IMG/VR virus record: IMGVR_UViG_3300035395_000183
Length of the DNA: 64,000 nt
Strand: one strand, 5' to 3'
Source of the DNA: an uncultured virus (IMG/VR IMGVR_UViG_3300035395_000183)
Taxonomy: Duplodnaviria > Heunggongvirae > Uroviricota > Caudoviricetes
Part shown: piece by piece, positions 20,693 through 64,000 of the stretch
Numbering within the stretch: position 1 is the stretch's first letter
How the letters are laid out: each line of letters opens with the position of its first letter
Translations under genes and position numbers: made by a program
The notes under the pieces: generated by a model
Told to the model about the DNA's origin: nothing
The model's input: the letters and a program-made list of their open reading frames with translations, nothing else
Databases searched by the model: none

Positions 20693-21994
20693 ATGACACG
20701 TGACGAAAGACAACAATTAGGAATTAAAAAATGAATACAAAATGGATGTAGAGGTACTTTACAATGGTGTACAGGGACAGGTAAAACTAGAGCTGCAATT
20801 ATTGGTATTAAAGCATTCCTAACAAAGAATCAAGGTAAAAAAATTGTAGTAATTGTTCCAACTGAATATTTAAAAATTCAATGGTATCAAGAACTTAGTA
20901 AATTTGGAATATTTGATTATGTACAAGTTGAAATTATTAATTCTGCAATTAAATCTTCAGAACGTATAGATTTCATCATTTTAGATGAAGTTCACAGAAT
21001 GGCTGCAGATACTTTTTATCAGATATTTGTACAGCGAAGACCTAAAGTTGTTCTTGGATTGTCTGCGACATTTAGTCGTTTAGATGGTAGACATGAATTA
21101 TTAAAGTCTTACTGTCCGGTAATTGATGTATTAAGTGTTAAAGAAGCCATTGAAAACAAATGGTTAGCTCCTTATAAAGAATATAAAGTATTAATTATGC
21201 CTGATGATATTGAAGTTTATAGGCAAGCTAATGCAGATTTTTTAAATGCTTTTGCTTATTTTGAAAATGATTTTAATCTTGCAATGAATTGTGTAGGCGG
21301 AATCAAAAAAAATAACAAAATAATAAAACCTTCACATTTTGTAAGGTATGAATATGCCCAACAACTTTGTACATTACCTTTATATCATCCACGATATAAA
21401 GATACTGTAAAAGGATTGCTTGCAGAAATCACTGCAATGGCATTTACTTGGAGTAGAGCATTACAAGTACGTAAAGGTTATGTAATGAACCATCCAAAAA
21501 AAGTTGAACTTGCACAACAGATTTTAAAAGCAAGACCAAATAAAAAAGCCATCACATTTTCAGCTACTATTAAACAAGCCGAAAAGATTGGTAATGGTTT
21601 AATAATTCATTCAGGTAAAACTAAGAAGAAAAATAGAATTACAATGGAAGAATTTGCTCCTATGAAAACAGGAGTGATTCATACTGCGAAAAGTCTTGAC
21701 GAAGGTGCTGATGTACCTGGTTTAAGTTTAGCAGTTATTCTATGTAATACTTCTTCTCAAACTCAAAAGACACAGCGATTAGGCCGTGTAATTAGGTATG
21801 AAGAAGGAAAGGAAGCTGAAGTATTTACTTTAGTAATTAAAGGAACCATGGAAGAAAGTTGGTTTAACACATCAATGGCTGGTAAAAATTATATTGAGAT
21901 TTCGGAAGAAGAATTGATTGATATTTTAGCAGGCGGAACTTCGGACAATCTTGTTAGAGAAGGAAAAGAAGTAGATGAATTATTTCGATTTTAA
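20693..21994 (+). CDS. superfamily 2 DNA helicase (one in-frame TGA at codon 14)
   Basis: MTRDERQQLGIKK*IQNGCRGTLQWCTGTGKT..DEVH..GLSAT..DEGADVP..QRLGRVIR. The track ORF starting at 20999 lacks Walker A and B, which lie in frame upstream. Confidence 0.9.
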
Positions 21995-24523: not shown

Positions 24524-27005
24524 ATGGCAGACTTAATTGGAGTCGTAGGCAATGCAGGAAGTGGCAAATCTACTTCAATGAGGAATCTAAATCCAAAGAC
24601 AACTTTTATTATAAATGTAGCGGGTAAACCATTACCATTTAAAGGTTGGAAAAAGAGTTATACTCCTTTAACGCAAGACCCTACATCTAAAAAGTTTGTG
24701 GGCAATCTGTACAATACCGCAAATACTGCGCAGATTCTACAAATTTTAAAAATGATTGACAAACAAAGACCAGAGATCAAAGTAGTAGTTATTGAGGATG
24801 CTCAATATATTATGGCTTGAAAGGATTGAAATGAATTTTAGTGAATCCATGTTACAGTATAAGAATGTATGCGGAATTTATAAAATTATTTGCAATGATG
24901 CAGATTTTTATTTAGGAAGTTCTAAAAACATTCAACAAAGATTTTACAAACATAGAAATGAACTTCGAAAAGGAGTTCATAAAAATGAACATTTACAAAA
25001 TGCTTATAATAAGTATGGAGAAAAATGTTTTAATTTATTAATTGTAGAAATCTGTAATATAGATGAACAATATTTAAGAGAACAATATTATATTGATTTA
25101 TTACAACCCGTTTATAATAAAGAACGAGATGTTTTAACTCATATTCCAACTGAAGAAACTAAAATTAAATTATCAGAAGCTAATAAAAAATATTATGCAG
25201 ACCCTGAGAATTTAAAGAAACGATATAAAACTATATATCGTTTTAATAGTTTATTTGAAATTATTAATACTTATGAAGGAATTAAACCAAACATTGAAGC
25301 GTGAGCTGTAGAATTTGGAATAAAACCTGGAGGTGCTGATAAGGGAATTAACAGAGCTTTAGCAAGTGGTAAATTATATAAAGGTTCTTATTGATCATAC
25401 GATCAAAATTTCAAAGGCCCTACAGTTAGTAATAACTGTTAGCAAATTTGGTGAATTCAGGGAAACTCCGAAATGAGCAATTCAAAGGACAATCCTGAGC
25501 CAAGCCCTGTAAAGGGAAGGTGCAACGACTATCTCGAAAGAGAGTACACTCAAGTGAGTGGAAGCGCCAAACATCTTAATTAAGATGATGATATAGTCTA
25601 ATCTGTATAGGAATATACAGCAGCTAAGTAGCGGGTAGTGTTTAACGAGCACTATTGAATATAAATGTTTGAAGCTATGGAAAGATCCTCTGAAAAAGGG
25701 TAATAGAACATGCCCAAACCAATCTAATTGACGGGGATATCCTTAGAGTCTTTTTAACCAAGCAATGATAGTAATATACATTGTGGCTTTCACTAATTAT
25801 GAAAGGTATGGTAAAATAAAAAAGAATTGGACAATCCGCAGCTAAGCTTCCAAAATAAAATTGGAAGAAAGTTCAACGACTATCTCCGTGAAGGGGAGTA
25901 CATTAAAGCTATTTATAACTTTTTTGGAAATGGTTGGAATTTTTATAAAAATTATTCGCTATCTTTGTAAATTATAATTTAACAAAATAGCATATGGAAA
26001 AAATTAAAGGAAAAAGCAAAATGCCGGAATATACACAATGGAAATCTATGAAATCTAGATGTTATTCACCCTCGGCAACAAAAGGAAAGTATAAAGAGAA
26101 TAATATTCAAGTCAGCAATGATTGGAAAAATTCTTTTGAAACTTTTTATTCAGATATGGGAAATTGTCCTATAGGATTTACTTTAGAAAGACTTGATAAT
26201 CTCAAGGATTATTCTAAAGAAAATTGTATATGGGCAAATAGAGAAGACCAAAGTAAAAATCGGGAAGATTTTAACGATATTGTTACTTATAAGGATAAAA
26301 CTATGGTATTAAAAGACTGGGCTAAAGAATTGAATATTAAATATACAACACTTTATCAAAGAATTTATAGAAGTGGTTTATCTTTTGAAGAAGCTATACA
26401 ACAAGATCCATTTAAAAAATTAATATCTATTGGAGAAGAATCTAAAACTCTTAAACAATGGTGTGAATTCTATAATATGGAATTTGAATTAGTTAACAAT
26501 AGAATCTTTAAACATAAGTGGGAACCTATTGAAGCTTTAACTATTCCAAAAGGAATAAGAAGAACTAAAAATTAAGATATAGTCTGAACTTTATGGAAAC
26601 ATAAAGAGTTGCGTTTATACGCAGATTAACACAATTGATGAGAAATTTACTCAAATGGCAAATAACTTCTATTCAGTATTGAAAGAATCTATGGGCATGA
26701 GAAATGACTTAAAGGTATGTGTATTAGCACATTCCGAAAACATAGGGGATGCACTCAACCCTTCCTATAAATTAAAAACATTAGGAAAAATGATTGACAA
26801 CATGATTACTGTTGAGGGTTTATTTACTTATGTATTATTTACTACACTTATCAATGAACTTGAAGGTGGAATATCACATAAATTTATAACTCAATCTGAT
26901 GGTACAACTACTGCTAAAACTCCAATGGGATGTTTTGATAGTATGTTGATAGATAATGATTTACAATATGTAGTCGAGAAAATTGACGAATATAATGAAG
27001 GCTAA
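24524..27005 (+). CDS. AAA ATPase (Sak4/AAA_24-like), spliced from exons 24524-24817, 25668-25701 and 26638-27005
   Basis: GNAGSGKSTS; joining the exons gives EDAQYIMA|FEAMERSSEKG(Y)|EKFTQMANNF..TVEGLFTYVL..TAKTPMGCF, a continuous family-like sequence. Confidence 0.9.
24818..25667 (+). mobile_element. group I intron 1 with GIY-YIG ORF in the P1 loop
   Basis: 5' exon ends in U and intron ends in G; guide sequence TTTCAAAGGCC near 25409-25419 pairs with both exons; core GAATTCAGGGAA, AATCCTGAGCCAAG, GCAACGACTATC, GATATAGTCTAA. Confidence 0.9.
24831..25442 (+). CDS. intron-encoded GIY-YIG endonuclease (TGA=Trp)
   Basis: CGIYKI..FYLGSS..RFYKH..HLQNAYNKYG; reads through TGA at 25302 and 25392 (YKGSY*SY) to TAG. 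Confidence 0.85.
25960..25967 (+). promoter_or_regulatory. Bacteroidota-type -7 promoter element inside intron 2
   Basis: TATCTTTG about 26 nt upstream of the endonuclease ATG. Confidence 0.55.
25994..26575 (+). CDS. intron-encoded HNH-like homing endonuclease
   Basis: YTQWKSMKSRCY..FYSDMG..TLERLDNLKDYSKENCIWA plus two LK.W repeats; all six Trp codons are TGG. Confidence 0.85.
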   Translation: MEKIKGKSKMPEYTQWKSMKSRCYSPSATKGKYKENNIQVSNDWKNSFETFYSDMGNCPIGFTLERLDNLKDYSKENCIWANREDQSKNREDFNDIVTYKDKTMVLKDWAKELNIKYTTLYQRIYRSGLSFEEAIQQDPFKKLISIGEESKTLKQWCEFYNMEFELVNNRIFKHKWEPIEALTIPKGIRRTKN

Positions 27006-28325: not shown

Positions 28326-29342
28326 ATGTATAATTTAGAAGTACCTATAAGGATAACAAAAGAACTTTTACTTTCTAAATCATGGACTCAAGAAACTTAT
28401 TTTGAGCATTATTTAGGAATACCAGTAAAAAAAGGATTGTTTTGCAGTCCTGCTATCATACGTAAAGATAATAAGCCGACCTGTTCTTTCTATAAGGGAA
28501 AAAATGGTCTTTTAAAATATAAAGATTTTGCTGGACCTACATTTGATTTTGTTGGTGCAGTAATGCACATTTTTGATTGTACTTATTATAATGCACTTCA
28601 AATTATTGCGCATGACTTTGGTTTTAAATCTATAAAGGATAGACCAATTAATCCTCCAAAAATGGAGTACTCGGGATACGAATTACAGGAAACCGAGAAA
28701 GCTAAAATTCAAGTGGAAATTCAAGAATTTACACAAAAAGAATTGGATTGGTGGTTAGCGTTTAGCATATCTTTGAAAACTTTAAATAAGTTTAAAGTCT
28801 TTTCAATTAAATCAGTATTTTTAAATGGTAATTACTTTACAAGTTCCTCCGCCTCTTCCCCAATTTATGGGTATTATGGCGGAGAAACTAGTGATGGTGA
28901 TGAGTTATGGAGGCTCTATATGCCTACGAAACTTAAATATAGGTTTCTTAGTAATTGGAATGCCACCATGATTCAAGGGGCAAAACAATTACCAAAAAGT
29001 GGAGAGTTTATTGTTATTACTAAATCTTTAAAAGATGTAATGGCATTATATGAATTTGGAATTATAGCTATAGCTCCTAATTCAGAGAATCTATTTGTAA
29101 CAGATGCCCAATACGCAAAATTAAAGCAAAAATTTAAAGATATTTATCTATTGTATGATAGAGATTTACCCGGTGTTAAATCTGCAAATAAAATTAGAAA
29201 GCAATTCAAAGACTTAAAAGTTTTATTGATGCCAAAGGTAAAAGATTTTACAGATTATGTAAAAAAATATGGAACATTAAAAACATTTAAATTAATTGAC
29301 GAATGGCTGGAAAAAAGACAGACGCAGCAGCAACATGAGTAG
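28326..29342 (+). CDS. DNA primase (crAss-type DnaG/TOPRIM)
   Basis: SP..RKDNKPTCSFY, ITKSLKDVM, APNSE, YDRDLPG and KDFTD motifs. Confidence 0.85.
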   Translation: MYNLEVPIRITKELLLSKSWTQETYFEHYLGIPVKKGLFCSPAIIRKDNKPTCSFYKGKNGLLKYKDFAGPTFDFVGAVMHIFDCTYYNALQIIAHDFGFKSIKDRPINPPKMEYSGYELQETEKAKIQVEIQEFTQKELDWWLAFSISLKTLNKFKVFSIKSVFLNGNYFTSSSASSPIYGYYGGETSDGDELWRLYMPTKLKYRFLSNWNATMIQGAKQLPKSGEFIVITKSLKDVMALYEFGIIAIAPNSENLFVTDAQYAKLKQKFKDIYLLYDRDLPGVKSANKIRKQFKDLKVLLMPKVKDFTDYVKKYGTLKTFKLIDEWLEKRQTQQQHE

Positions 29343-29752
29343 ACGAAACTCAAGAAGTTGAAGTAAAACCAAAAAAGAAACGCTCAGGATCCTATTCTAA
29401 AACAAAAGGATCTACTTATGAACGACAAATAGTTAATGAATTAAAAGAATTAACAGGTAATGAAAATATATGTACCGCAAGAAGTGAATCTAAGAAATTA
29501 GATGATATGAAAATAGATATTTCAGATCCTGATAAAGTTTTACCTTGTTATTTTCAAACTAAGAAAACTCAAACAACTCCGAGTGTTAAAAAGATTAACG
29601 CCGAGGTTGGATTAACGGATAGGCCGTTATGTATTCTTTGGAATATACAAGTTAAAAAAGAAGGAAATGTAAATATTACTTCGGAAGGTGAATATGCAAT
29701 TATTCCAAAACAATTTTTTTATGAATTACTAGAACACCTTATTAACGCATAG
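29303..29752 (+). CDS. Holliday-junction resolvase-like PD-(D/E)XK nuclease (one in-frame TGA at codon 12)
   Basis: MAGKKTDAAAT*VDETQ..SKTKGSTYERQIVNEL..SKKLDDMKIDI..FQTKK. The track ORF starting at 29507 lacks the KG..YER motif. Confidence 0.75.
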
Positions 29753-29786: not shown

Positions 29787-30290
29787 ATGAGAATTCATTT
29801 AGATGTTGATGATGTAGTATTAGCCTGGCATGAGGCTTATATCAAAAAATACAATTTACCCATGCCAACAAATTGGATACCATACGATGAAATTAAAGAC
29901 CATTTAGCAGAATTGAAGAAAGACAAATCGTTTTGGCTAAGTCTTGAGGTTAAACACTCTCCTAATTTTCAGCCTGCTGGTTATGTATCAGCACGCGGCG
30001 TCCCTATACAATGGACCAAAGACGTTATGAAATTAAGAAAGATTCCTGGCAGAAGCAAAATAAAACATGTGGGGTGGGGAGAAAGCAAAATGGATGTTTT
30101 AAAATCATTGGGATGTGAACTATTTGTTGATGATAAATATGAAACATTTCTTGAATGTCACAAACATGGAATTCCATGTCTATTGATGGATACTCCACAA
30201 AATCGTCATCATCAAACGAATCTTCGTATTTATGATTTAAAGATTGAAACTATAATGCAAAAATTTAAGTTATGGAAGTCTATACGTTAG
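29787..30290 (+). CDS. HAD-family 5'(3')-nucleotidase-like protein
   Basis: LDVDDVV, VSAR, K, FVDDK, and P.N motifs. Confidence 0.8.
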   Translation: MRIHLDVDDVVLAWHEAYIKKYNLPMPTNWIPYDEIKDHLAELKKDKSFWLSLEVKHSPNFQPAGYVSARGVPIQWTKDVMKLRKIPGRSKIKHVGWGESKMDVLKSLGCELFVDDKYETFLECHKHGIPCLLMDTPQNRHHQTNLRIYDLKIETIMQKFKLWKSIR

Positions 30291-30797
30291 AAGAGAAAGA
30301 TGGATGTCTAATAGGCGTCTTTGATAGCATTGCAACTATTAGAGAATTTTATCGAGAAGATGATAGTGAATTTCCTGAAAGGTATATTATGACTGACGAA
30401 GAGTATAAACTTAATTTAGAAGAAGAGGAAATTTATGCATGTCTTACTAAAGTATTTACTCGTTTTTCATTCCAAGACCTAGAACCAAAAGTAAGTTCAA
30501 CAATAACAATGTTATGACAACAATATATCTTGTTACTTGCTCTGAAAGTTATTTCCATAATTATCAACCTCCGTTTGATGATATTATATACGGTTTCTAT
30601 TTAGATCTACAAGCTATTAAATTTGACTTTCAATGTCATGGTGAAGAGTCGTGGGAATCACTTGAAAATCTTAATTTTAAAGAAACCCAAGAATGGCTAG
30701 ATAAAAGTGGATTAAAACTTTCAATCGTATCTGCATATTCCTACGCAGATATGCAAAAAATAGATTTAGTAAATACAAATGACATACTTATGCTTTA

Positions 30798-31844: not shown

Positions 31845-32196
31845 TGGATTTAGCAAATCAAATTAATAAACTAAGCTATGAAGAAAAACAAGACATATAT
31901 CAAAGGGTTTTTTCGTTAGGTAGTTTAACTTCAGACGAGATGAATGATAGATTAATTCTTATCTCTTTAGTAGCTTTAGTTTATCAAAAAATGAAATTAC
32001 AAGATAAAAATGTGACACCAATAACAGTACTTTTAAAAATAACTGGTGAGAAAGATAAAAACTCAAGTTATTATCAGTTCTTAGAAACATTGGCTATTAT
32101 AGCACAAGATTTTTCTTATGATGTCAAAAAAATCGATACTTGTGGATTTAAAACTTCTCAAGAAATTATTAATAAAATAAAAGACCTTTTAAATAC

Positions 32197-33153: not shown

Positions 33154-33220
33154 TGGAACAAATCAGATGAAATATACGCATAGATGAGAAATATTAAAAT
33201 TTTTAAATGAAGAATGCATT

Positions 33221-47574: not shown

Positions 47575-48034
47575 AAACTATTAATAATTTATATTATGAA
47601 ATTACAACAACTTTTTACAGTAGAAATTGAAGATGATGATATGTTAGGATATATCAATAACATGCAAGATTGTGATGACTTAGAAAATTTTGATACTTTA
47701 GATGAAGTTCCAGATGAACTAATTTATTATATGCTTGATAGATACCTTGTATTTGAAGAAATCTTCTATGAGGAATATACTTATGAACCTCTTGACATTA
47801 CAATTGTAAAATAATGGACATATTAAATGCAAGACCCGAAGACATGAGCTTCGAGGAATATAAAGATCAACTTAAGTTTCAAAAAGCCTGGATTAAAAAT
47901 CATAAACAAGGCAGATTGTTTTATTTAGCATCAGAAATTTTATATGTTCCGGAAGATACAACAAGACGTTTTGGATATCCTCAAACTTATTCTGGATATA
48001 TTGGCAACACTGCTGAATTAAAATATCCAATATA

Positions 48035-49162: not shown

Positions 49163-49177
49163 AAACGATTTCAAGCT

Positions 49178-50800: not shown

Positions 50801-51511
50801 ATGGAAAATACATTCGCATCATTTAAACCTATAACATTAAATCCTAATCCTTCTAAAGAAGAAATTCAGCAAGAATACTTTAATAGTAATAATGATTACT
50901 TAGATAAAGATATTAGCAGTATATTAGGAATAAGTTTATCTCCTGCAACTTCTGCAACTCCTGCTCCTCAAGAAATTAAATCTGAAAAGAAATATAATAT
51001 TAGGGAGTTATTAGATGAAAATCCTCCGGAAACATTAACTGCTTCTGTTAAGTCTAAAAATACTTCTATAAAGCCTAAAAATAAAAAAGAATTTCTTCAA
51101 ATATATTCTCCAATGGCAGAAGAAGCATCTAAAAAACTAAATATTCCTAAAGACTATTTATTAGCTCAAATTGCTTTAGAAACCGGATGAGGTGAACATA
51201 CTCCTGGTAATAATGTTGGAGGTATAAAAGCATTTGCTTCCTGAAAAGGACCTAAACAAATCCTTAAAACTAAAGAGAAAGGAAAAAATGGTTTAGAAGA
51301 TAGAATGGAACCATTTAGAATGTATAATTCAATAGAAGAAGGTTTTGCAGATTATGTTAATTTATTATCAACTAGTAATAAATTTAAAAGTATCGTGGGA
51401 ATTTCAGATCCATATCAAGCTGCTCAAATTATTGGAAAAAGTGGATATGCCACTGGAGATAACTATGGTACAATAATACAAAATCTAATAAAAGAAGTTC
51501 AACAAATCTAA
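50801..51511 (+). CDS. GH73 (FlgJ-like) peptidoglycan hydrolase (TGA=Trp)
   Basis: Two track ORFs join: LAQIALETG*GE..NNVGGIKAFAS*KG..FRMYNSIEEGFADY..GYATGDNY; TGA at 51188 and 51242 fall at conserved Trp positions. Confidence 0.9.
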
Positions 51512-51573: not shown

Positions 51574-54500
51574 TTACTTCTTAAACACTTCAGCAGCACC
51601 AATATTTCTTGTCATAACATCCATAATTTCTCTATCTCCAGAGATAGAATCTCATATATCTGTTGACATTTTTTTACTTCAAGATAAGAAGACAGGTTCT
51701 GTATTAACAGCTCCTAACGTACTTTGTCATACATTATATTCATTTAAAACTTTATTATTAACTCTTCCTGTTAAATTTAATAATGAACCTGATAAACCGT
51801 CAGTACCTTTTTCTGCAATTAATTGATCTATTATAGCTTTCATAATACCAAGCATTATAAAAATTAATCCAGCATCAGCTAAAGCAAATAAAGCACGTCT
51901 ATTTCTTTCTTCACTATTTTTAATATGAGTAAAATCCAATTTTACAACATCACGTAATGTTCCTACTACAGAATACCAAAGTCCTTCATATGGAGAACCT
52001 TCTCATTTCATTACTGGATCTCCTGTATCTTGATCAGTAGTTTCAGTTGTAATTGTTCCATCATCATGTTCAACTGTTTTAAAGTATTGTAATACTTTTT
52101 TACCATCAACAATTAAATAGTCTTGTACAACTTTACCCATAGGACTTTCATCTCTATGTTGTTCATCAATAGGTTTAGCAAATCACATTTTCATTTTTCC
52201 AGGCCAAAATTGCATAAATTGTAATCAGGTCATTCCTCATCACGTATTATTAGCTTGAGATTGAGCATCTTTATCATAATAACCATATGCCATATCAGTA
52301 AAGGATTTCATACTTGTTCTCTCCGTTTCTGAATATGCTTTATTAATTATATCTTTTTCTGAAAAAGTATCTTTACCATATTCTTTATTTAGCATATTTT
52401 GTAATAACAAATATCTTTGACGTTGTTGATTATATTTAACATCATTAGTTGATGCGATAAATTCATTTCCTTTTTGATATTTGTCTCGATTTTTAAAATA
52501 ATATTCAAAACGTTTATCTTTTGTTGGATCATAAGTAAATACTCCATCAACTAATGAATGAGCTTCATAACTTCCATCATGAATCATTTTAGCAAGAAAA
52601 ATCGATAATCTATTATAATAATCAGGAATTGTATTACACATATATAAATATCGACCTGTTCCTCTAAGCATACCTCGTCTATCAGATTGAGATTTTTTTG
52701 CAATAGTATTAACGTCCATATTGGCAAATCTATAATATCTATTTAAATCATCAATTAAATTAAATTCAGATGAAAACTTATTATCAATAGTCATTAACTT
52801 GTGATAAGCTTTAGTTAAATCGCCAATTGTAAATTGATCTTTTCCATAAATTTGAGTAGCAGCTAAAGATATTCCTTTAAATACTCCAATAGTCATTTCT
52901 TTTACTAAAGATGTTATTTTGAAACCTAACATAGCAGGAGTTGAAATTGCTTTAACTAAACCGGCTACTTTAGCAAAATCTTTAAACTCTTCATCAATAA
53001 CTGGTTCATCAAAAATAGATAATTTCATTTGATTAGTAATATACTCTAATTGATTGGAGATATCTTCATTATTTTTACCGGCTGATAATTTCATCCATCA
53101 TATAAAAGAATTAATGATTGGAAGTTTTTTATCATATTCATTTTTTCTAATTTTACTAAAAGCAATTCGATGTGCAATAGTATCTAAATTTCATTCAAAA
53201 TAATTTATTGAATGTTTTTCAATACCTTTAGCTACATACTCAGGAGTTTGTCTAGCATATACATCATACATTTCATAAAATCCTAAATTTTGAGCCTCCA
53301 AAGCTGCCAAATCATCTTTAGTTAATTCACGATTATCAATATAATCATTAAATTCATGAAAATATGATGATAATTTTTCTTTTCAAAGTTTTCCTGGAGT
53401 AGTAAAGATATCACCAAATCTAGTAACTTCTTCTCTTCTAATTAATGGCATTCTAAAATATTCTTCACTTTCTAAAGCATCTTTTATTTTATTATTAGTC
53501 ATTAATGATTTTATATTTTTACTATCTAACTTTGCAATTTCTGAATCTGGAATTTGTAATTTATGTGCATTTATAATTAACAATAAATTTTGTAGGTATT
53601 CTCGCTCATGATCCTCTAATGCATTAAGATTATCTAACACATAAGGATTTTTAGTTCTAAATTCTTTAGATACTTTTTGATTTATATCATGTAATCATAA
53701 ATTTTCATGCTTTGTTTGAGTTTCACCAATAATATTACGAGAAAATCCACTGAAATTAATTTCTTTATAGAATTTTTTAGTATTTCAAGCAATTTGTTCT
53801 GATGCCTTCAACATTTTTTCTCCAATATGTTGATTTGTCATAGCCATAATTTTATTAATACTATGTAAATCTTTTGATGCTACTCAATCTGGAGTAGTTC
53901 ATAACAATCCCTGAGTAATTCCTTGAATACGTTGACGTTCTTTATTATATTTTTCCTGATGATCACTAAATAATACGGCAATTAAACTTTTGAAATCAGA
54001 AAAACCTAAACTATATTTAGACATTCGTTGATAATCATCAGCAAATTCCATTTGACCTTTTGAAGCAATAACTACTTGTAAAAGTGCAATTAGTACTTCT
54101 TTTGGATCATTGAAATCAACTACTCCTTTCATTGTTTTATCTCGATATCCAACAAATCCAGGGGAATTAAACAACTCTCTTTGAACTTCAATTAAAGCTT
54201 CTACATCTAATAAATCTAAATTTGTATCACTAATATTTTTAAAAACTCTTTCAACATCTTCTTTATTTGTTCCATTAAAATTTCTTAAATTAGTAGTTAA
54301 GTTATATAAAGCAATATCCTCAATTGAAGCTACATTTTTTTCACTTAATTTTAATTCTTTTCTTAATGATTCTTTTAAAGACATTTGTTCTTTAAATTCA
54401 ACAAACTTACTAAAACAATTTTTAGGATAAGTTTGCATATTTAATGGATTATAAATTATAATTTGTGCTATTTTATCATTTTTAACAGAAACATCTGATG

Positions 54501-56238
54501 TAGGAATTAATATATCTTTAAATTCATTTAAAAATAAAAAAGTTTTTAAAAATTCTAAATCTCCATATGTTTTTCCATCAATATGACTTGATGCATCAAA
54601 TTGATTTATAGATAAACTAATAACATTAATGTTTCCATTTAATTTATTTTTTAAAACAACTAAACCAAAAGCAATTGCTTCAGGAATTTCAGTTACTACA
54701 TCTCAATCATCATTTAAATATTCGGTTAATAAATGATTGATAGTTAAATCCTTTTGTAAATCATATGAATTTGTTTTAACTGGAATTTTACTTTTAATAG
54801 CTGATATAATAGCATCCTTTAAAATAGAGACATTTCGATTAGTTTGAGTTTTTACATGGTCAACATATAATTTAATTTTTTTTCTAAACTCTTCTTCTGT
54901 ATCCGATTCAATATAACCTTTTTTTAATCCTGAAATTCCCTCAAAGTTATTTCATTTAATCCATTTCTTGTCTTTTTCATAACGTTTTCTTGCATTTTCT
55001 ACAATTTTTTCTACATCAAAATCTTCAAGTCCTGTTTCTATTTTATATTGATTTCCAAGTAAATCAGATAATTGCCCTTTTAATTTATATTCTCTATCTG
55101 GATTATAATCTGCAATTACTTTTCTAGGAATGAGTTTATTTGCTTTTTGAGTTATTGCTCCAGTTGAATTTAAACCACTATTATTTTCAGTTCCTCTATC
55201 TACAATCTTTTCAACACTTATACTACCTGGATTTCCAAGAGTTTCTAAATGTATAGGAATTACATATAATCGAGTTTGATCTATATTAATATGTAATCCT
55301 AATAATTGTCTATATAAAGCTAATTGTCAATCTAAAGTTAACTTTTTAGCTGTATCTCATTTCTGATATTTAGTTTTAGAAATTTTAATTTCAAATATAT
55401 GTGCATTTCCTGATGTATCAACAGCTACTAAGTCAAGTTTTCCTTTTAATCCTCTTTTTCCACTTGAAATCTTTGAATCCTCACCTCAAATATCAATTGG
55501 TGTTTTAAATTTATCTCCATCAGTCATTATCATAATTTCACTAATAAGATACCCTTGTCCTTGAACCTGAGAAATAACATTTGTTACTATTTCATTAATC
55601 TTTTTAGTTCAATCATTTGTAGAATAGTTACCAAGTAATTCTGAGTTTGCTGGATCAGATAAAAATCGATCAATAAGTTTACTATATTCTTTATCTTGTA
55701 TTTTTAAAGAAATAATATTATGTAAAAATGTACCAAAATCCTTTGTCTTTTCTTCGATTTCTCGAATATTATAATATTCATTTAAAAGAGTTATTAATCT
55801 ACTTAAAGGAATATTTTTTAATTCATCAAAAGTTGAAATGTATTCTAGTAATTTTTCATCATATTTTAATCCGGATATGTTTTCTGTTGGAGAAATATTT
55901 TGAACTCGGTCTAAGTTTTCTTTTATAAAATAGTAAACTCTATTTTTTTCAATAATTTCTGGAGCTAAAATTCCTTTTTCTTTTGTTTCAATTCCTAAAG
56001 AATTATATAAACCTGGATGTGGAGTTGTAATAAACTCTGTTACGATTTCATTGTCAGAGGCAGTATAATCTGAAACTTTAACTACATTTAAAATCTTATT
56101 AATTGTACTTTTTTGAATCTCTTCTTTACTATAAATTTTATCATTTTTTAATTGATAGTTGGCTTCAAAAAATTTAGTAATTAAAGTTTGTATGTCGTTT
56201 ATCTTTTCTCCATCTTTGTAATAATAGCAATTTGTCAT
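51574..56238 (-). CDS. giant virion cargo/RNAP-associated protein with RecB-type PD-(D/E)XK domain, 1554 aa (TGA=Trp)
   Basis: Track fragments ending at 55609, 53899, 53383, 52240 and 51727 share one frame and all stop at TGA; motifs FGTFLH..GKLDLVAVD..IFEIK..*QLALY; TAA stop at 51574-51576. Confidence 0.85.
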
Positions 56239-56239
56239 T

Positions 56240-59200
56240 TTATGAACAATTTAAAGTTATGTTATTTTCATTTAATCAAGTTCTCATAGCTGGTTCTGTT
56301 ACAATTAGACTCAAGTTATATAAAGCATGACTAGAATCTCCTTTTGGTATATCAAATAAATCCATTAAAGGAGTATTTAATAATTCTACTGGATTTTCAG
56401 TATTATCTATTTCATATAATGGATTTACATCAGTTATAATACTTTTTAATCCATTTACAAAAGTTTGAAGATTCTCAAAGTTTTTAATAAAATCTTCTTT
56501 ATTAGCAATTTTTGCAGATACAAATTTAACAAATATTTCTTCAGCTTCAGTAACATTGATACTATCTATATCAGTAAGATTTAGTGTTGAATCTTGTAAA
56601 ACTGATTTAATAAAATCATTATAAATTTCAGGATGTTTATAGCGTAATGGGATTAAAAATACATGTAAAAACTCATGAATTACATCTTCCGTTGTTCCAA
56701 TTTTATCACTAATTAAAATTGATAAATTTTGTTCTCCATTTTCATCTATGGACGAAATAGCAGCATGTTGACCTTCCGTAAATATAGATGAATGCGAAAT
56801 TAATTTAATTGGAATGTTTAAGTCTTTAGTATATTGCTTAAATGAATCAATTAATAAATTAATAGCTTTATTTGTTTTAGTTCGATTTTCTACTTTATTT
56901 TCAACTAATTTATTGGCTTCTTTAAAAGCTGGTTTTATTTTTGTATTACCTACTTGTAAATATAATTTTGCTATTCTTTCTTTCAATAATTCCTCTGCGG
57001 ATAACGTTATTTCATGTGTAATTATTTTACCTTCAGGCGAGAATTTATTAAGATGTGCTTTAACAATATCTCCATCTACACTTATAATTCGATAAATGTT
57101 TCTATCAATTCAATCTTTATTAGTTTTATGTTGTAGTGCAAAATAAGTTCCAGGTTGAATAATATTTAAATCTGATTTTGTTTGAAAATCTAATTTAGCA
57201 AATCCAGGAATTACTACTAAAGATGTTAAATTACGTTCATATAAATTAGATTCTTGACCTTGTAAAGCTTCTCTTCTAACAAAGATCTTTGAATTAGATT
57301 TTTGATTTAAAACTTTTAATAATTCTTTTGTAAAATCTAAATCATCACTATTTATATGATTAATATCTTTATATTGTCCAATATTTAGATAATTTCCTGG
57401 TAATATAGAAGCTGAAGCTCTAGCTTCTTCTGATAAAGTCTTTGGAATAACATAACGTACTTCTACTTCTCATTTAGAATCTTCAATGGCTTCTTTAAAT
57501 TCTACTTTTCAACTATTAGCTCTTGTTGTAAATAAAGTATAGTTTGAAGTAATATTTCGATTTGTAAAGAATTGTAAATCTGATTTATTTTCTTTAATAT
57601 AATCCATTGATTTAATAACTCTATCACTTAGATTTTCATCATATGTTAGAATTTTTTTATCGGATAAAACTTCACCAAATCGTTTCTTTCCATTATCTGT
57701 AAATGTAAAAAAGTCTCCTTCTTGTGCTAATGTTGAATCTTGAAATGATGACATTGTTGCAGCAGAACGTCCTAAATTTTCTGATTCTTTTTTTATTTGT
57801 CTAATATCAGTATCTGTTAAATGTCGAATACTATTTCTAATACCTTGTAAGCCTTCTTTTGGAAAAGCTTTAATTATATAATGATTTTTTTTGACATCTT
57901 CTACATAAGAATATACATTATTTGCATCAACAAATAAAATACTTTTATAGAATTTATGTGTTTTTCCTTGATATAAAAATAAATCTCCAGCAGTTAAATC
58001 ATTACTATTATTAACTTCAGCAAAAGATTTATAATTATCAGTTTTTGATCTTTCTTCGGCTTTAATTAATTCAAGTAATTTATATGATGTGAATGATCTT
58101 ATTTTAGAATAATATATATGTTCAGATTTTGTTACTTTTCCAGATGTTTTTTCCACGGTTAATTGACCAGGATAAATACCTAAAAGTAAATCATTTCCAA
58201 CAGTATCACCTTTACTTAAAAAAGGTTTTATAATTTTATGACTTAAAGGAGTATCTAATTTAATATGAGCTCCTTCTAATTTTAAAACTGATTGTCCTGA
58301 TTCTCCTATTCTATATTCTGCAATTGGCTCTTCTCTCTTACGAAAAGTAAGTTCCCCAGCTTTAAATGTGTTGTTAACATATTTAATTTCTCCAAATGAA
58401 TTTTTAATAACTCCATAAATTGCAACTTGATTATTGGGACGTTTATATATACCTGTAACTAAACCATATGTTCCTTCTGAACCTTCCGGAAATTTTACAA
58501 TATCTTTATTTACAATAATATTTTCAAGAGCATTTTCATATAAATTATCGAAAATTGTTTCAGATGGAGCAAAATACATATTTTTATTAGTAGTTTCTAA
58601 TTCAAAGAAAGAAAGTTGTCTTTCCTTAAATTCTTTTTCTACTTGTAATTCATTTTCTACAAACTGAATATCTTGTAATTGTTTAAATAAATTATCTTTT
58701 CCATATGAATTAGGATGTAGTTGTCAAAATAATGATTTTATAGCCTTAATAAGTCCTACTGTATCTGGATTAATTGTTTTAGCTACTAATGTTAAAATCT
58801 GATTAATTTGAGATACAGTTTTTGCATCTGTAGCTTTAGTCAACATTTTTTCAAACGTAGATGGAATAATTTTATTTTCTACAATTGTGCCACGAAAAAA
58901 AGTTTGAATATCAAATGTATTTATATCAAAAGTCTTATCTTCTTTTAAAATACTTACTAAACTTTCAATATTTACTTTAGTAGCTTCTCTTTTAAATAAT
59001 CCTAAAAATAAAGATAAATCATCATCTGTTTCATAAATAACAACATCATCAGTACTTCAAGCTTTTCCTATAAATGAATCATTTACTGAATATAATAAAT
59101 GCGAATCATTATTTTTAAAATGTTTTACATTTAACGTAGATAATAATAATTGAAGATTTTCTGTAATTTCTGTATTAAAATAATTTTGTAAATTTTCTAA

Positions 59201-59692
59201 ATTTTTAGATTTAATTCTATCTTTTTCTTCTTTTAATGTTGTTGTTCCTAAAACTCCGACAACACCTAAGCCTTTAAAATAATTTAAATCTCTTTTCTTT
59301 AATAACTTTGCTTTTAAACTTTTAACCTTCTCATTTACTTCGCCTTTCTTTGTTCCCTCTCAAATATAATTTTTAATAGCTTGTTCAATATTTGCATACG
59401 TGCCCGATTCTATTATTAATTTATTAACAGTTTGATATAGATTATCAATTTCAGAACTTTTTTTAATTATATTTTTAAGAACTGTTTGATGTATTTTAAA
59501 AGAGGTTTCTTCAGTAATTAAATCTGCCAATTTGGCTAATATTTTATCTTTTTTCTCAACGTTTTCTTCTGCATTATAGCTATTGAAAAGCTCATCTATT
59601 TTTGGATTTTGTCCATCAAGATTATTAAAACTAGTGGAGAGTTCTATGACATCTCCACTAGGTAATTTTAACAAATATTTACATTTTGCCAT
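56240..59692 (-). CDS. giant virion cargo protein with C-terminal zincin-like HExxH motif, 1150 aa (TGA=Trp)
   Basis: Fragments ending at 59360, 57509 and 56276 share one frame and stop at TGA; VIHEFLH motif; TAA stop at 56240-56242. Confidence 0.85.
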
Positions 59693-59695
59693 AAT

Positions 59696-62600
59696 TTAAC
59701 ATTCAAATTTAATTATAAATCCTTTACTTTTAATCAATTGAATTACTTCATGTAATTCTGCTCATCCTTTTTTAACTTCCGGGGTTTCTGTCATAGAGGT
59801 AACAATTACGAAATCTCCATTACTAGAATTTAACTCACTTCCTAAACCTTTGATTGCTAAGGAACCTTGTTTATGTAAAGAATAAAAAAGTAAATCATTT
59901 TCTAATTCTGTTTTTATTTTTTTTCTAAGTTCTAATATTTTTAATTTATCTTCATTTCGTTGAGCAAGTAAGTACTCTGGATCGCGAGATAATTCTTTTT
60001 CCAAATCATATAAATTTAATTCTCCACTATCAATTTTAGAAGAAAACATTACATAATCATAACCTAAAGAATCTTCTTCTTTAATATAATCCTCAAATAA
60101 TGGAGTTAAACGTAATGCACCATAACGCTCATTATTTAATGTTAGATTATAGATATAAAATAAATCTCTTCATTTTACTAAATTATTTTGTGTATTTTTT
60201 ACTAATGTATTTGTATCATGAGAAATATCTAATTCATTAAAAGCTTTTATTAATTTCTGTGCTTTGTCTTTAGTTACAGCATTATTAATAGCACTTAAAG
60301 GAAATGTTGATGTAATACCTTGAGTTTTAATTCCTAAAATATTTCTAATATTAGTTTGAACTTTTAACGAATCTAATAATATATTAGATTTAGTTTGTAA
60401 CATTGGAAGTAAAATACTTTCCATTAATCGCTTAAAGTTTGCAATTCCAAAATTAGTATCTAATGTAATAATAGTATTTTCTGTATCAGTTTCATTAACT
60501 AATATTGAATTATCATTTATATACTTGGCATTTCGAGCGTTATCAGATGTATATACTCTAAAATTATTTATTTTAGTTAACCCAGCATCAAAGTTCATAC
60601 TATTTACTTTTCGTAATAATTCAGTAACATTAAATGAATACTTTTTCAGTTCATCAGTTTTTAATCATTCACTAATTAATCTAATATCAATTCCTGCTAA
60701 TCCTTTTGAAATAATATTATCAGTAATTTTTGGATAAAATGATGGATTGCCAAATTGATTTACAATATTTGAAGAATTAGATACTATTCGATGAGAATTT
60801 TCACGAATTGTAGTTTTAATTAACGAAAACGCTGTATTATATTTAACAGATGATTTTAATAAAATCTCATGTGTTAATGCTAATCCATTAATCATTTCTC
60901 TAAAATGAGGCAAATCATCTATTACATCAAATATATTAAAAGTACTTTTTATTAAATTATAATACTCTTTAGTAGCTTCTCTATACAGAACATTTTCAGG
61001 TTTAAAATAGATTTGAAAATCAAAATTTCCTCCAATAATATTTAACTGGCCTGCTTTTAATAAAGTCTTTTTTACATAAGCTACATCAAGACTTGCATCT
61101 AAAGAAGTATTATATTTAAAAATTAATCCAATTAATTTATCTAATTTAGTATTAGCTTCTGCTACTTTAACTAAATCTTTTGAATCCTTATTATTCATTC
61201 AAAAATTTAAATCAGCAACGTTATTTGAAAATACATGATTTTCTCTTGCATAAACCGCTGTTTCAAAGTTAGATAAATATTTGTTAATTTCTTGAATATT
61301 TGCTGATGTTTTTTGGTTAACAGATAAAAATTTAGCTAATACTTTAACTTCTTGTGCCCCTTGAAAAATTTCTTTTAATGTTTTAGCATTTTGGACCTTT
61401 TCAGGATTTTCATCACCGTATTCTTTAATCAATTTAGTAAAAATAGTAGCTACTACTGGTTTTTTAGGATTAAAAAAAGCATTTACTTCCAATGCATCAA
61501 TAACATCTTCCATAACATCATTAGTCATAATATTTGCAACTTGTGTAGGAGTAAATCCAAGAATCATCAAATAAATATGCATAGATGCTAATTCAACATT
61601 TGCATTAATTTTAGCCATAAGTAACTCTTTTGCATTATCGGTAGCAGCACTAGTAAAACCAGATAAAGCTAAGGCAGCATTAGTTCTTCTTAATTCAAAA
61701 TCTCCAATAGATTTTTGTAAAGATGTAATTTGTTTTTGTTGAATATTCACATCCGCAATCATTCCAAGTTTATAAGGTGTTACTACACCGTTATTAATAA
61801 AATTGAATTGTTTTGAAAATGTTTTATTACTCTGTCGTAAAGCATCAGCTTTATTTTCAAAGAAGTTATTAAAATAACTATTATAATATGTACTTAATGC
61901 AAAAAATGCTTTTAATCCATTTGCTGCAATACCTACATCATCTTTACCAACTGCAGCATCTCGTTGTTGTTTATACATACTAAACATATCATACATAGAT
62001 AAAATCGTTGGAGGTTTAGTCTTTTTACTTAAAGCTTCTTTAGCAGCTTGGTGCCAATCATCAATATTAATTGGTGTATTTGCTAATAAATAATTACTTG
62101 GTGATGAAATAACTTGTTTAATTGTGGACGCTGTAAGATTTTTTAATGATTCATTATTATATAAATGTTTTTTATTTTTATTAAAATTGTTTAATATAAC
62201 AACAAATCCTTTTAATAACTCTTCATTGCCATTAATTGAAATTCCTGTAGTAATAGGAGGATGATTTTTTTCTGATAATTGTTTAACATTTACATTATTA
62301 ATTTTTCGCAAAATTGTATTCAAAACTTTTAATTGTTCTGCTGAAAATTCATTAAATGCTAATGAAGGATTAGCATAAAATTTAATAAAATCCTCTGTTA
62401 AATCTAGCCCTCCTTCAACTAATTCTACAATTGTAGCATTTGGTAAAGGTAGTTTTTCTAACTCATGTAATTGTTCAATAGATGAATAATTATCAATAGA
62501 TCCTCAGGTATTAAATTGTCCATTACCTGAGAAACTACTTCCTAAAATATATGCTTTATCAATATCAAAGTCAGAACCTTGTAATCAAATTTGTCAGATA

Positions 62601-64000
62601 GATACATAAGCATCATTTGATTTCGTTTTAAGGTATGCTACATTTTTCATTTCCATAAACGATTGCATAGATTGTGATGGAATACGAGCAGCTACAAATT
62701 CATGAGATTTTTCTCAAGAGGCATACATTTTTTTACCTAATTGAGAAATAATACTATTTTTATTTAACAAAAATCATTTATCCTTTATAGATTTATCTCC
62801 AATAGAATAACCAGAAAACTTTGAAAACTCCTGTAAAGTTAAACTATTAAAACTAATTCGTCTAGATTTAAATGATGGGGCAGCTACTTTTTCAGTTTTT
62901 CTTTCTGCTATTTTTGCAGCTGTTTCTGTATCCTCTACTTCTTCAAACAAATCAAATTTGTTATTCATTAAAGGAATAAAACTTCTAATATTTCCTTTAA
63001 ATGATTTAATTAAATCTTTTAAATTTTGATCAAAATCTTTAACTTTATTAGTATGAGTTTCTTTTCCTAATTTAAATGATGCAACTGCTTTAATATAAAT
63101 AACTTCTTTTCCATTTTCCATCCTTATACTTACATTTTTAGTATCAGGGATTGTATATAGAATCTCTCCTTTTTGATTTCTTCTAACAAAACGTTGATTA
63201 ACTCCATCCTCTTCCATTGGATGTTCTAGAGTAATATTTAAACTATAATCATTTCCAGGAAGATTATCAGTGTATTTAACATATATTGGAGAATCATAAT
63301 TGTTTAAATATAATTTAATATCAGCAACTGTACTATCATCATGAAAATCTTTTTCTAATAATTTCTCAAAATATGCAGAACCTTGCTGTTTAATTTCATA
63401 CATTGAATCCTCAAAGTTACGATTAAATTTAGATTGATAAATATCTCCTAAAATTAATTCAGCTGCATTAAATTTATAATTTGTAATTAATGAACTATTA
63501 GAATCATCATATAATTGTTGCACATCAGAAAATATTGCATTGAAATTATCAGTTTTAAATAAACCTACTTTATTATTAAATTTGGTTGTAATATCAACAG
63601 GATTCATTACTCTATTAGTTTCTAATAACTCTAAGTTTCTTTGAGTCCATTTATTTAATAAAGTGTTTAATAATTTAGCTGTTTCTTCTAATTTAGTAGT
63701 TAAACTAATAAATAAATCAAATCCTGTAAAATCTTTAAAGAAATTAGATAAAATAATATAATCTGTAGATGTTTGATCAATTACTTTTCTATTTTTTAAA
63801 TCATCAATAATTTCATTTAATTTATATCTTAAACGTACAGAATCAAAGTCAAATACATTTTTTTGAATTCCATTAACTACATATGTAATTTCAGAAGGTT
63901 TTAAATCTCTTGGTTTATTTATAATTTTAGTTATTGGTTCACTAGTTTTAGTTCCTTTATATTTATAATATAATCCAGGATTAAATAATGTTTTAATCAT
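59696..64000 (-). CDS. crAss-type virion DNA-dependent RNA polymerase, catalytic subunit, 5'-truncated by the window edge (TGA=Trp)
   Basis: Fragments ending at 62774, 61199, 60665, 60170 and 59762 share one frame; FVAARIPSQSMQSFM..VSI*QI*LQGSDFDIDK (DFDID at 62558-62572), VGKDDVGIAANG, SAATDNAKELL. Confidence 0.9.

Follow-up and report, generated by a model that had tools for sequence, protein, structure and literature searches.

A conserved early recoded stop codon as a probable translational gate on an Hjc-like nuclease of a TGA-recoded crAss-like phage

Introduction

The closest described system is the model of Borges et al. (bioRxiv 10.1101/2021.08.26.457843), in which recoded stop codons of gut phages are proposed to act as a timing brake on late and lysis genes. 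In the accessible part of that preprint, the host is taken to read the standard code, genes carrying recoded stops are blocked before the code switch, and an early gene's intron homing endonuclease is named as held back. The statistic used there, for the same part of the text, retrieves families in which the recoded codon is favoured above CAA/CAG or TGG and yields lysis and tail genes; one of four crAss-like families is labelled “of unknown function,” and this unnamed family may be the nuclease gene described here. TGA-to-Trp or TAG-to-Gln recoding, mostly in late genes, is also described in the consulted sections of Yutin et al. 2021 (PMC7886860) and of a paper on Zeta crAss-like phages (PMC12386605), together with code switches over short distances, suppressors that are not always found, and large genomes with introns and tRNA blocks. 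Those sections mention neither the nuclease studied here nor an N-terminal single-codon pattern, and the words “resolvase” and “nuclease” have 0 occurrences in the Zeta paper. A literature search combining stop codon recoding with Holliday junction in phage found no paper, and a broader one gave nothing on the topic among the matches listed.

A single codon tying a gene's translation to a tRNA that arrives late is known from the bldA/TTA control of Streptomyces, where one rare codon makes translation depend on a late-available tRNA. That system uses a sense codon and a developmental tRNA of the host, whereas the phage gate proposed below would use a stop codon and a viral suppressor. For enzymes of branched DNA, a rationale for delay comes from T4, as far as the accessible text of PMC3016281 goes: endonuclease VII (gp49) does its work very late, at the packaging step, and is able to cleave forks that are blocked, and UvsW is made from a late promoter. 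The likeness to our locus would lie in the late clearing of branched DNA at packaging, whereas control of the T4 enzymes is transcriptional and that of our phage would reside in a recoded stop. T4 endonuclease VII is an HNH-type enzyme, with a fold unrelated to that of the phage nuclease. Control in T4 is reportedly also exerted through mRNA structure, which is attributed to Barth et al. 1988.

Results

Genetic code of the phage

The analysed stretch of 64,000 nucleotides (hereafter the window) belongs to a TGA-recoded crAss-like phage. Two features define its recoded part:

51574..64000, minus strand: late block, whose giant ORFs stay open only if their TGAs (21, 7, and 9) are read through
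50801..51511, plus strand: glucosaminidase (lysis) gene with two TGAs decoded as Trp, the last plus-strand ORF of at least 90 codons before the late block

When TGA was read as sense, ORF cover between 50 and 64 kb of the window increased from 0.47 and 0.89 to 0.96 and 1.00. The late block contains 37 TGA and 6 TGG codons for Trp (39 and 6 with the lysis gene). From the comparison of aligned codons, TGA is read as Trp in this phage, because the second Trp codon of the nuclease (W113) is TGG in 16 and TGA in 4 of 20 lineages and W14 of a helicase is TGA in the window and TGG in relatives. The code of the relatives was judged by ORF cover; a terminase Pfam search for the same purpose matched 0 of 5 records. 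The genome is AT-rich and biased toward A-ending codons, which make up 74% of K, E, and Q codons.

Neither the window nor the near-identical 83-kb record G001, which represents about 48% of a genome, yielded an opal suppressor tRNA. The 17 tRNA-like matches recovered there comprise 14 named by ARAGORN, two read from Rfam alignments (GCA and UGG), and a weak one that is GUC at best (by eye). The complete relative G011 encodes a tRNA(CUA) at 84.7 kb (Rfam, 44 bits) and the complete relative G008 a tRNA(UCA) at 161 kb (ARAGORN), which is Sec-like at 38 bits, under the cut-off of 47; both, as candidate suppressors, stand away from the main tRNA arrays.

Frame and start of the nuclease gene

The features of the locus are as follows:

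28326..29342, plus strand: primase gene (Toprim), sharing its last 40 nt with the beginning of the nuclease gene and ending in a TAG (29340-29342) right next to the TGA
29303..29752, plus strand: nuclease gene of 149 codons (P0001), PD-(D/E)XK and Hjc-like, read whole only if TGA is Trp
29303..29305, plus strand: start ATG, inside the primase codons GAA TGG; relatives have an ATG at the homologous place
29303..29383, plus strand: leader, residues 1-27, with a basic stretch, an acidic stretch with Trp, and a basic arm; predicted to be disordered
29336..29338, plus strand: in-frame TGA at codon 12, the proposed gate, decoded as Trp; TGA in 20 of 20 related lineages, TGG in 0
29420..29563, plus strand: catalytic core codons E40 (29420-29422), D72 (29516-29518), Q85 (29555-29557), and K87 (29561-29563), invariant in 19 sequences
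29639..29641, plus strand: second Trp codon, W113, TGG in the window and TGA in some relatives

The coordinates confirmed the frame proposed in the initial annotation, opening at ATG 29303 with one TGA at codon 12: it terminates at TAG 29750-29752, and the TGA is the sole in-frame stop before it. The same annotation correctly described the other Trp codon as TGG and the absence of any other in-frame ATG ahead of the KG..YER motif; in this motif and in D..QTK, residues Y39, E40, D72, Q85, and K87 proved invariant across 19 aligned relatives. The first ATG, GTG, or TTG located 3' of the TGA is, under table 11, ATG 29507, past E40, and a start there (Met69) entails the loss of Y39 and E40. From 29339 up to the YER motif the frame is also devoid of CTG, ATT, ATC, and ATA (by eye). 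A non-ATG start downstream of 29338, raised in the initial annotation as a possible objection, was thus not found, and the gene needs TGA read-through.

Residues 1-22 of the leader have pLDDT below 50 in the predicted structure, and family profiles align the nuclease only from residue 27-32 onward. The leader Trp is the single conserved residue of the leader. It had been supposed that this Trp was unlikely to be needed; this view did not hold, since the Trp and its acidic context are conserved, the Trp being encoded by TGG in the TAG-recoded clade.

We considered a frameshift from the primase and rejected it: the run at 29311-29317 (A AAA AAG) is already in the nuclease frame, a -1 shift out of the primase frame would still hit the TGA, and no plausible slip site was seen between the TGA and the primase stop, which together read TGAGTAG (all by eye). 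A search of 29290-29420 for an RNA structure at the leader, either SECIS-like or stimulating read-through, gave a z-score of -0.80, with 39 of 200 shuffles folding equally well. Between primase and nuclease, promoter-like sites numbered 9 against 13.9 expected, in a scan that does not cover Bacteroidota promoters, and terminator-like sites 2 against 1.4 expected, with nothing outstanding. From the 40-nt overlap, we assume that the two genes are co-transcribed.

Identity of the nuclease

The product of 29303..29752 is, from its sequence and predicted model, a PD-(D/E)XK nuclease. It presents the E ... D ... (D/E/Q)xK pattern on an alpha-beta-beta-beta-alpha-beta core (helix 38-51; strands 83-89, 109-118, and 125-133; helix 136-148), and the top fold matches of the model were all PD-(D/E)XK nucleases. 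The best was the archaeal Hjc 1gef (Z 5.8, rmsd 3.7, 91 residues aligned), followed among Hjc/Hje structures by 1ob8 (Z 5.4), 2wcw (Z 5.0), and 1hh1 (Z 4.6), values for which the tool itself notes that Z below 8 may mean only a common arrangement. The Hjc matches reached an E-value of about 0.1 in Foldseek against the PDB, where no match at 0.001 or better was obtained, and a sequence search of solved structures returned nothing relevant (best E 0.64).

Archaeal Hjc/Hje and the phage protein share a small PD-(D/E)XK domain, roughly 120 residues long, with E...D...(E/Q)xK; Hjc/Hje are the best fold matches across residues 36-148, and a symmetric dimer is predicted for the phage protein. They differ in that identity is only 9-15% (Z 4.6-5.8), Gln replaces Glu in the last motif, and the phage protein has an additional N-terminal basic/acidic leader or, in the TAG clade, an additional domain of 55 residues. 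The predicted homodimer scored 0.81 against 0.00 for the best of 3 controls, with partner pLDDT of at least 82 and contacts agreeing to at least 98%; it was modelled from the protein of the window only, and such a pass may reflect memory of solved Hjc-like dimers. Of proteins with solved structures, 21 of 30 pairs and 0 of 23 single chains attained the mark used.

Pfam PF24608 (PDDEXK_15, phage putative PDDEXK endonuclease) matched over profile positions 2-69 of 164 with 21.6 bits (E 2.2e-4), short of its gathering cut-off of 27 bits, and precomputed matches to it occurred in 5 of the 120 homologues listed out of 237. By sequence, the nuclease is at best a fringe member of that family. A match to phrog_244, labelled RusA family, covered residues 27-97 (E 2.4e-6); no RusA chain figured among the listed fold matches, and the label looks like a functional name rather than a statement of fold. 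The description “resolvase-like” given in the initial annotation therefore stands in part: it is in line with Hjc as the top fold match, with the predicted dimer, and with the PHROG label, but the fold match is weak. Judging from the models, the nuclease is most likely a dimeric Hjc-type cutter of branched DNA or Holliday junctions.

The leader codon in TGA-recoded relatives

The leader Trp codon was TGA, and never TGG, in all 20 lineages compared, so that the absence of a conserved early TGA in relatives, which would have spoken against a role for it, was not what we observed. Pairwise nucleotide identity among 15 of these lineages is 0.58-0.85. Their 148 flanking ORFs contain 373 TGG and 11 TGA codons; the 11 lie in 4 dubious ORFs or are true stops, and the flanking replication genes hold no credible TGA. 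The leader pattern exceeds chance because TGA stands at 20 of 20 leader sites against the 373 TGG of the flanking genes. The lineage counts are not independent events because ancestry is shared, and a column test is weak by itself, 1 of 30 conserved K/E/Q control columns being equally extreme (without any G-ending codon).

The ATG-TGA-domain frame is kept in relatives, and no usual start codon occurs between the TGA and the motif in the window and 10 other lineages. In 9 of 15 lineages the codon that follows the TGA is overlapped by the primase TAG (TGAGTAG). The TGA is retained in six loci whose primase stop lies 8-31 nt off (L008, L015, L016, L019, L026, and L039) and in L027 and L029, where a search within 150 nt of the motif revealed no upstream gene end; the overlap is thus unnecessary for the TGA. 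The leader Trp is widespread among the 26 homologues read, and part of the conservation may therefore serve the residue itself.

The gate is not universal among recoded relatives, some having none. In L028, L031, and L032 the leader TGA is absent and a TGA stands at an internal Trp instead. L005/L006 and L007 have TTA (Leu) at the leader site and lack the TGA, though their phage is TGA-recoded, and in two further subgroups no gate was seen. The automatic leader script wrongly called L038, L106, L197, and L198 “early” through chance upstream ATGs and missed 16 loci; the other classes were assigned by reading.

An early TAG in amber-recoded relatives

In the TAG-recoded clade, 17 of 19 lineages place a TAG within codons 3-7 of the long-type nuclease orthologue, and the remaining two have internal TAGs only. 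In the 11 clusters parsed by script, the early TAG is the only TAG, against 6-10 CAA/CAG codons; the script covered 17 of 35 long-type loci and the other classes were read. The short-type L195 begins MDKQ-TAG. Among the genomes, G006 and G011 are TAG-recoded, as is G005, whose nuclease has no TAG. The conserved flanking genes of the clade are TAG-free, its primase-nuclease spacing is about 0.5-1.1 kb, and the leader Trp, spelled TGG, is kept with its acidic residues. The initial annotation had favoured a regulatory role for the early stop, and amber-recoded relatives carry an early TAG in its place. The occurrence of an early TAG in amber-recoded and an early TGA in opal-recoded relatives supports a selected translational gate.

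The helicase and other early recoded stops

The same gate had been suggested for a second gene:

20693..21994, plus strand: SF2 helicase with a TGA at codon 14 (20732-20734), upstream of Walker A; the TGA is not conserved

Here the suggestion failed. W14 is encoded by TGA only in the near-copy of the window, L042, and in L043, and by TGG in 5 other distinct sequences (9 loci); the helicase contains no TAG in four amber-recoded genomes. We also scanned 9 further early-stop ORFs in G008 and G011 as candidates for a wider class of N-terminal gates and upheld none: in 3 the family match begins well past the stop, which points to over-extended starts, and 6 had no match.

Discussion

We favour, with fair but not high confidence, the reading that the early recoded stop is a translational gate delaying the Hjc-type nuclease to the late phase. 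For the timing of the nuclease, the release of the short peptide, the suppressor trigger, and the substrate, we infer the following course. The gene stands directly behind the primase, within the standard-code replication block, and its translation would begin at ATG 29303. With the standard reading of the host, the ribosome would halt at the UGA of codon 12 and release an 11-residue peptide, and the nuclease would be absent. Once UGA-reading machinery is active (presumably an opal suppressor tRNA, as the late genes need), codon 12 would be read as Trp and the full-length nuclease produced. The gate would make the nuclease a late product, available when branched DNA needs clearing for packaging. 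That relatives keep an early stop near the start suggests that the phage probably withholds the nuclease until the late code switch. With 21 TGAs in one late ORF, suppression must be efficient in the late phase, and the single nuclease TGA would then act mainly before the switch.

The timing-brake idea of the initial annotation is already known in kind from Borges et al. As in their model, the late ORFs of our phage read TGA as sense, the nuclease needs read-through, and the recoded codon is kept over the sense codon. In contrast to the genes of the accessible part of their preprint, the nuclease belongs to the replication block and has a single recoded codon at its start with standard codons elsewhere, a layout that their statistic, as given there, would not flag. 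The proposed gate would be an instance of their timing model, with a gene class and a layout that are new relative to that part of the paper.

The stops could instead be tolerated without function, the nuclease being late for other reasons, such as a late promoter of its own, and the early site being an accident of ancestry. The AT-rich genome, the predominance of TGA among Trp codons of late genes, the possibility that the leader TGA is one old event inherited by all, and the relatives that do well without it are compatible with such drift. However, drift predicts that the second Trp codon should also be mostly TGA, whereas it is mostly TGG, and in the TAG clade TAG accounts for just 1 of some 7-11 Gln codons and is placed at codons 3-7 in nearly all lineages. 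Two codon types and at least 3 separate sites imply a repeated origin, and we regard mere tolerance as unlikely.

To a similar degree we doubt that the stop limits dose rather than timing, with partial read-through keeping the amount of a harmful nuclease permanently small. Forks can be cut by structure-selective nucleases (PMC3016281, in its accessible part), and one early stop would yield a harmless short peptide and no truncated enzyme; nevertheless, late ORFs with 7-21 TGAs imply near-complete late suppression, under which one TGA costs little late yield. This explanation overlaps with the gate model.

It is much less probable that conservation concerns the Trp residue, or else the primase end within the overlap, with TGA just as the spelling of Trp. 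The TAG clade does keep the Trp followed by acidic residues, as TGG, and the TGAGTAG overlap is frequent, but TGG would suit the residue equally and occurs in none of the 20 lineages, in contrast to the neighbouring genes, where Trp is TGG throughout; the TGA is also retained where the primase does not overlap, and the stop of the TAG clade lies elsewhere. Least credible of all is a wrong start or a dead gene, the leader being untranslated and the protein beginning downstream or the gene being broken: profiles match only past the leader, distant relatives begin right ahead of the motif (e.g., MANRNRTAGHNYERQ), and other “early recoded stops” of G008 and G011 are over-extended starts, yet usual start codons are missing between TGA and motif, the frame is conserved with its ATG, a sense codon lets the leader be read through in L005 and L007, and the catalytic residues are invariant.

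Returning to the translational gate, we advance a broader version of it more tentatively, as something that could be true but on which we would not insist: the single N-terminal recoded stop may be a portable switch that evolved repeatedly in opal-recoded (codons 4-18) and amber-recoded (codons 3-7) crAss-like phages, licensing a fork-cutting Hjc-like nuclease after the code switch. Its recurrence with TGA or TAG follows the code of each phage, and the delay would have a biological reason in that an enzyme that cuts junctions is of use for packaging but a hazard while the DNA is being replicated. The idea of recoding as a timer has so far been based mainly on genes rich in recoded stops; in the nuclease the entire effect would fall on one codon of one small gene in an otherwise standard-code operon. 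If the gate exists, this gene would serve as the cleanest one-codon reporter found in nature for when the phage changes the code in the host cell, and a one-base change or the 27-codon leader would offer a simple experimental handle on the timing and completeness of the switch.

For annotation, table 11 shortens the nuclease to 81 codons or misses the gene. The phage of the window also has introns and tRNA blocks, as in large crAss-like genomes, and the record of L176 is 99% identical to it.

The Phage and Its Genetic Code

The primase region of the window is similar to annotated primases of the crAss-like phages cr118_1, cr55_1, and cr1_1. A near-identical viral record (G001, 83 kb) is rated 48% complete, so the whole genome should measure about 170 kb; from this size, a group I intron and tRNA blocks, we infer a place among the large "Zeta" crAss-like phages (PMC7886860, PMC12386605). 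The plus strand, from 1 to ~51.5 kb, carries tRNAs and replication genes almost all readable in the standard code, and the minus strand (51,574-64,000) three giant frames interrupted by 21, 7, and 9 TGAs unless these are read through. TGA means Trp in this phage: 16 lineages write the second Trp of the nuclease as TGG and 4 as TGA, W14 of an SF2 helicase (20693-21994) is a TGA codon here and TGG in relatives, and the late-block frames with the lysis gene contain 39 TGA vs. 6 TGG codons.

The Nuclease Gene

The gene studied here lies directly behind the primase gene (28326-29342):

29303-29752, + strand: nuclease frame of 149 codons, from ATG 29303 to the stop TAG at 29750-29752
29336-29338, + strand: its sole in-frame TGA, codon 12

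The first 40 nt of the nuclease gene lie within the end of the primase frame, whose stop TAG (29340-29342) sits next to the TGA, and the other Trp of the nuclease (W113) is a TGG codon in the window. All facts stated on this frame in the initial annotation were confirmed. As for a true start downstream of the TGA, no usual one occurs before ATG 29507, the first table-11 start, from which Y39 and E40 would be lost; reading by eye, the stretch from the TGA to the nuclease motif also has no in-frame CTG, ATT, ATC, or ATA.

In Pfam, PDDEXK_15 matched residues 32-96 at 21.6 bits, below its cut-off of 27, and in PHROGs the match (E 2.4e-6) was to phrog_244, labeled "RusA-like Holliday junction resolvase". 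Across 19 aligned relatives, Y39, E40, D72, Q85, and K87 were invariant, reproducing the E...D...(E/Q)xK pattern of PD-(D/E)XK nucleases. The AlphaFold model (mean pLDDT 77) was confident from residue 30 onward and disordered at residues 1-22. Foldseek returned no match to it at E 0.001 or better; in a structural search against representatives, archaeal Hjc/Hje resolvases took ranks 1, 3, 4, and 6 over residues 36-148 (1gef, 1ob8, 2wcw, and 1hh1, with Z scores of 5.8, 5.4, 5.0, and 4.6, a range rated middling by the tool), rank 2 being a mitoribosomal chain (Z 5.5). A two-copy model of residues 28-149 scored 0.81 vs. 0.00 for the best of 3 controls, with partner pLDDT of at least 82 and contact agreement of at least 98%, a mark reached by 21/30 proteins solved as pairs and 0/23 solved as single chains; this predicted pairing may owe its pass to likeness to solved Hjc dimers. 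Because of the catalytic pattern, the family matches, the fold ranking, and the two-copy model, we call the product an Hjc-like PD-(D/E)XK nuclease, and we infer that it has resolvase activity.

The Early Stop Follows the Code of the Phage

Relatives were gathered from viral contigs, metagenome contigs, and GenBank phages, and each leader was read; a lineage was a distinct leader or a domain less than 90% identical (L093 has the same leader as L008). Among relatives of the window's short-leader type, the leader Trp was TGA in 20 lineages and TGG in none, so that a lack of conserved early TGA in relatives, which would have spoken against the gate, was not observed; a further, partial one (L039) also had TGA. 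The codon number ranged from 4 to 18 and the surrounding leader was highly variable (pairwise nucleotide identity 0.58-0.85 among 15 lineages). The leader TGA does not depend on the primase overlap: the primase stop was 8-31 nt away in six cases (L008, L015, L016, L019, L026, and L039), and L027 and L029 showed no upstream gene end up to 150 nt from the motif.

It is possible that the recoded stop is merely allowed, drifting under tolerance. As a control we used conserved Lys/Glu/Gln columns, whose codons likewise end in A or G and share the same ancestry: 1/30 lacked any G-ending codon which, taken alone, is modest evidence for selection on TGA. The contrast with flanking genes is stronger evidence for its retention, Trp being TGG 373 times in 148 flanking ORFs from 20 lineages, with 11 TGAs, all of them in four ORFs, which were chance frames overlapping others, variable inserts, or the real ends of genes.

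In another set of orthologues, from TAG-recoded phages, the gene order is the same (primase, nuclease, a 167-178 aa gene, and a ~345 aa gene); reading TAG raises the ORF cover of G006 from 0.37 to 0.77 and that of G011 from 0.39 to 0.73. These long-type nucleases have ~55 extra N-terminal residues, and in 17/19 lineages the gene starts with M-(1-5 residues)-TAG, the TAG being at codons 3-7. In the 11 clusters parsed by script, it was the sole TAG vs. 6-10 CAA/CAG; in L001, L002, L203, L204, L208, and L211 it was read by eye, L204, L208, and L211 having one further internal TAG each. The two without early TAG, L205 and L212, have 2 and 4 internal TAGs. There was no alternative start in the 80 codons after the TAG of L101. 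A short-leader relative (L195) begins MDKQ-TAG and one with a different N-terminal domain (L157) MAK-TAG. The conserved flanking genes of this clade are TAG-free, the 23 TAGs found in 9/67 flanking ORFs being mostly in variable inserts. With early TGA in opal relatives and early TAG in amber ones, this nuclease gene thus has, convergently, a single early recoded stop whose kind follows the phage's own code.

The ~55-residue domain (L101 1312-1866, L001 2860-3429) had no Pfam match; its pattern presumably resembles a small DNA-binding helix-turn-helix of homing-endonuclease type. In L157, a Cys-rich domain takes its place. An ORF of 130 codons with unassigned function in G011 (38802-39194, - strand) begins M-K-K-TAG like the nuclease; it could be another gated gene, or its start may have been called too far upstream.

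Exceptions and the Helicase

The early gate is not universal among recoded relatives. In L005/L006 and L007 the leader site is TTA (Leu) and TGA is absent, and a 740-codon frame with 7 TGAs indicates that their contig is TGA-recoded despite the ungated nuclease. G005 is TAG-recoded (ORF cover 0.43 to 0.75) with a TAG-free nuclease. No credible gate was found in the G005 subgroup (six clusters), L035, L192, and a distant short group (four clusters), the code being known for a minority of them. L028, L031, and L032 lack the leader TGA and have TGA at an internal Trp.

The leader Trp, with acidic neighbors, is kept at the protein level in at least 18 of 26 homologues read, and is TGG within E-W-[VILA]-[DE] in the TAG clade. 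The initial argument that Trp is unlikely to be needed in the leader therefore fails, and selection for the Trp residue itself is a possible explanation; TGG-to-TGA at a tolerated Trp would simply be the easiest route to an opal gate.

The helicase had been proposed to carry the same gate. Its codon-14 TGA must be read to include the Walker A motif, and is otherwise seen only in L042, which is near-identical to the window, and in L043; W14 is TGG in L044, L045, L046, L047/48/49/56, and L052/53, in L055 it is the following Trp that is coded TGA, the N-terminus is missing from L050, L051, and L054, and the helicase of four amber-recoded genomes has no TAG. Since the TGA is rarely kept, the proposal is not supported for the helicase. 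In G008 (47719-50092) this gene is interrupted near the N-terminus, with ~1.1 kb between residues 42 and 30-204; the interruption, also seen in L050 and L051, is likely an intron or a mobile insert.

A Proposed Translational Gate

We favor, with some reserve, a translational gate as the role of the early recoded stop. Before the code switch the ribosome would terminate at codon 12; afterward Trp would be inserted there and the nuclease made. Late frames with up to 21 TGAs need efficient late read-through, so a single TGA would matter mainly before the switch. The stop could possibly limit dose, but this same read-through favors timing over dose. By analogy, T4 endonuclease VII, which acts during packaging and is able to cut blocked forks, and the late-made T4 UvsW (PMC3016281) would supply a rationale for delaying the nuclease.

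In two complete relatives, G011 and G008, the suppressor that matches the recoded stop (the first two entries below) is located away from the main tRNA arrays:

G011 84701-84777 (84.7 kb), + strand: amber suppressor tRNA(CUA), Rfam 44 bits
G008 161242-161337 (161 kb), - strand: long-arm Sec-like tRNA(UCA), ARAGORN; Rfam tRNA-Sec 38 bits, cut-off 47
G008 24197-24271, + strand: amber suppressor tRNA(CUA), within a tRNA array

The G011 suppressor stands alone where the late block borders its neighbors, on the late-gene strand; the remaining 23 tRNAs are on the opposite strand, most in two arrays. G008, which is TGA-recoded, has tRNA(CUA) although TAG is not visibly recoded; two suppressors of this kind, as in G008, are reported in PMC12386605. 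Among 17 tRNA-like hits in the 83 kb of G001, none reads UGA.

Recoded stops as a timing brake were already proposed by Borges et al. (bioRxiv 10.1101/2021.08.26.457843). That work names lysis and tail families, plus an intron homing endonuclease located within an early gene; one of its four crAss-like families is of unknown function and might be this one. Their statistic is preference for the recoded codon, which the one-in-ten pattern of the nuclease would not trigger. Our literature searches found no paper linking recoding with a junction nuclease.

Other TGA-Containing Frames

The TGA at codon 7 of the extended frame 33167-33925 (+) was considered as a gate and rejected, being most likely upstream of the true start, ATG 33221. 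The group I intron (25379-25620, +; Rfam RF00028, full length, 110 bits) lies between ORFs 24792-25304 and 25994-26575, and the in-frame TGAs around it indicate that it probably splits a gene. Three ORFs of the tRNA block (1954-2610, 3982-4377, and 6114-6551, +) have 5, 2, and 3 TGAs that must be read through to keep them open. A 204-codon ORF of G008 (31912-32526) has TGAs at codons 28 and 77, matching places in window 1954-2610, which suggests a TGA-rich, possibly mobile gene conserved in the early block. An 81-codon ORF (30272 to 30517) has TGA as its final codon, overlapping the start of the next ORF (30514) in the string ATGA, so TGA is also a true stop within the standard-code block.
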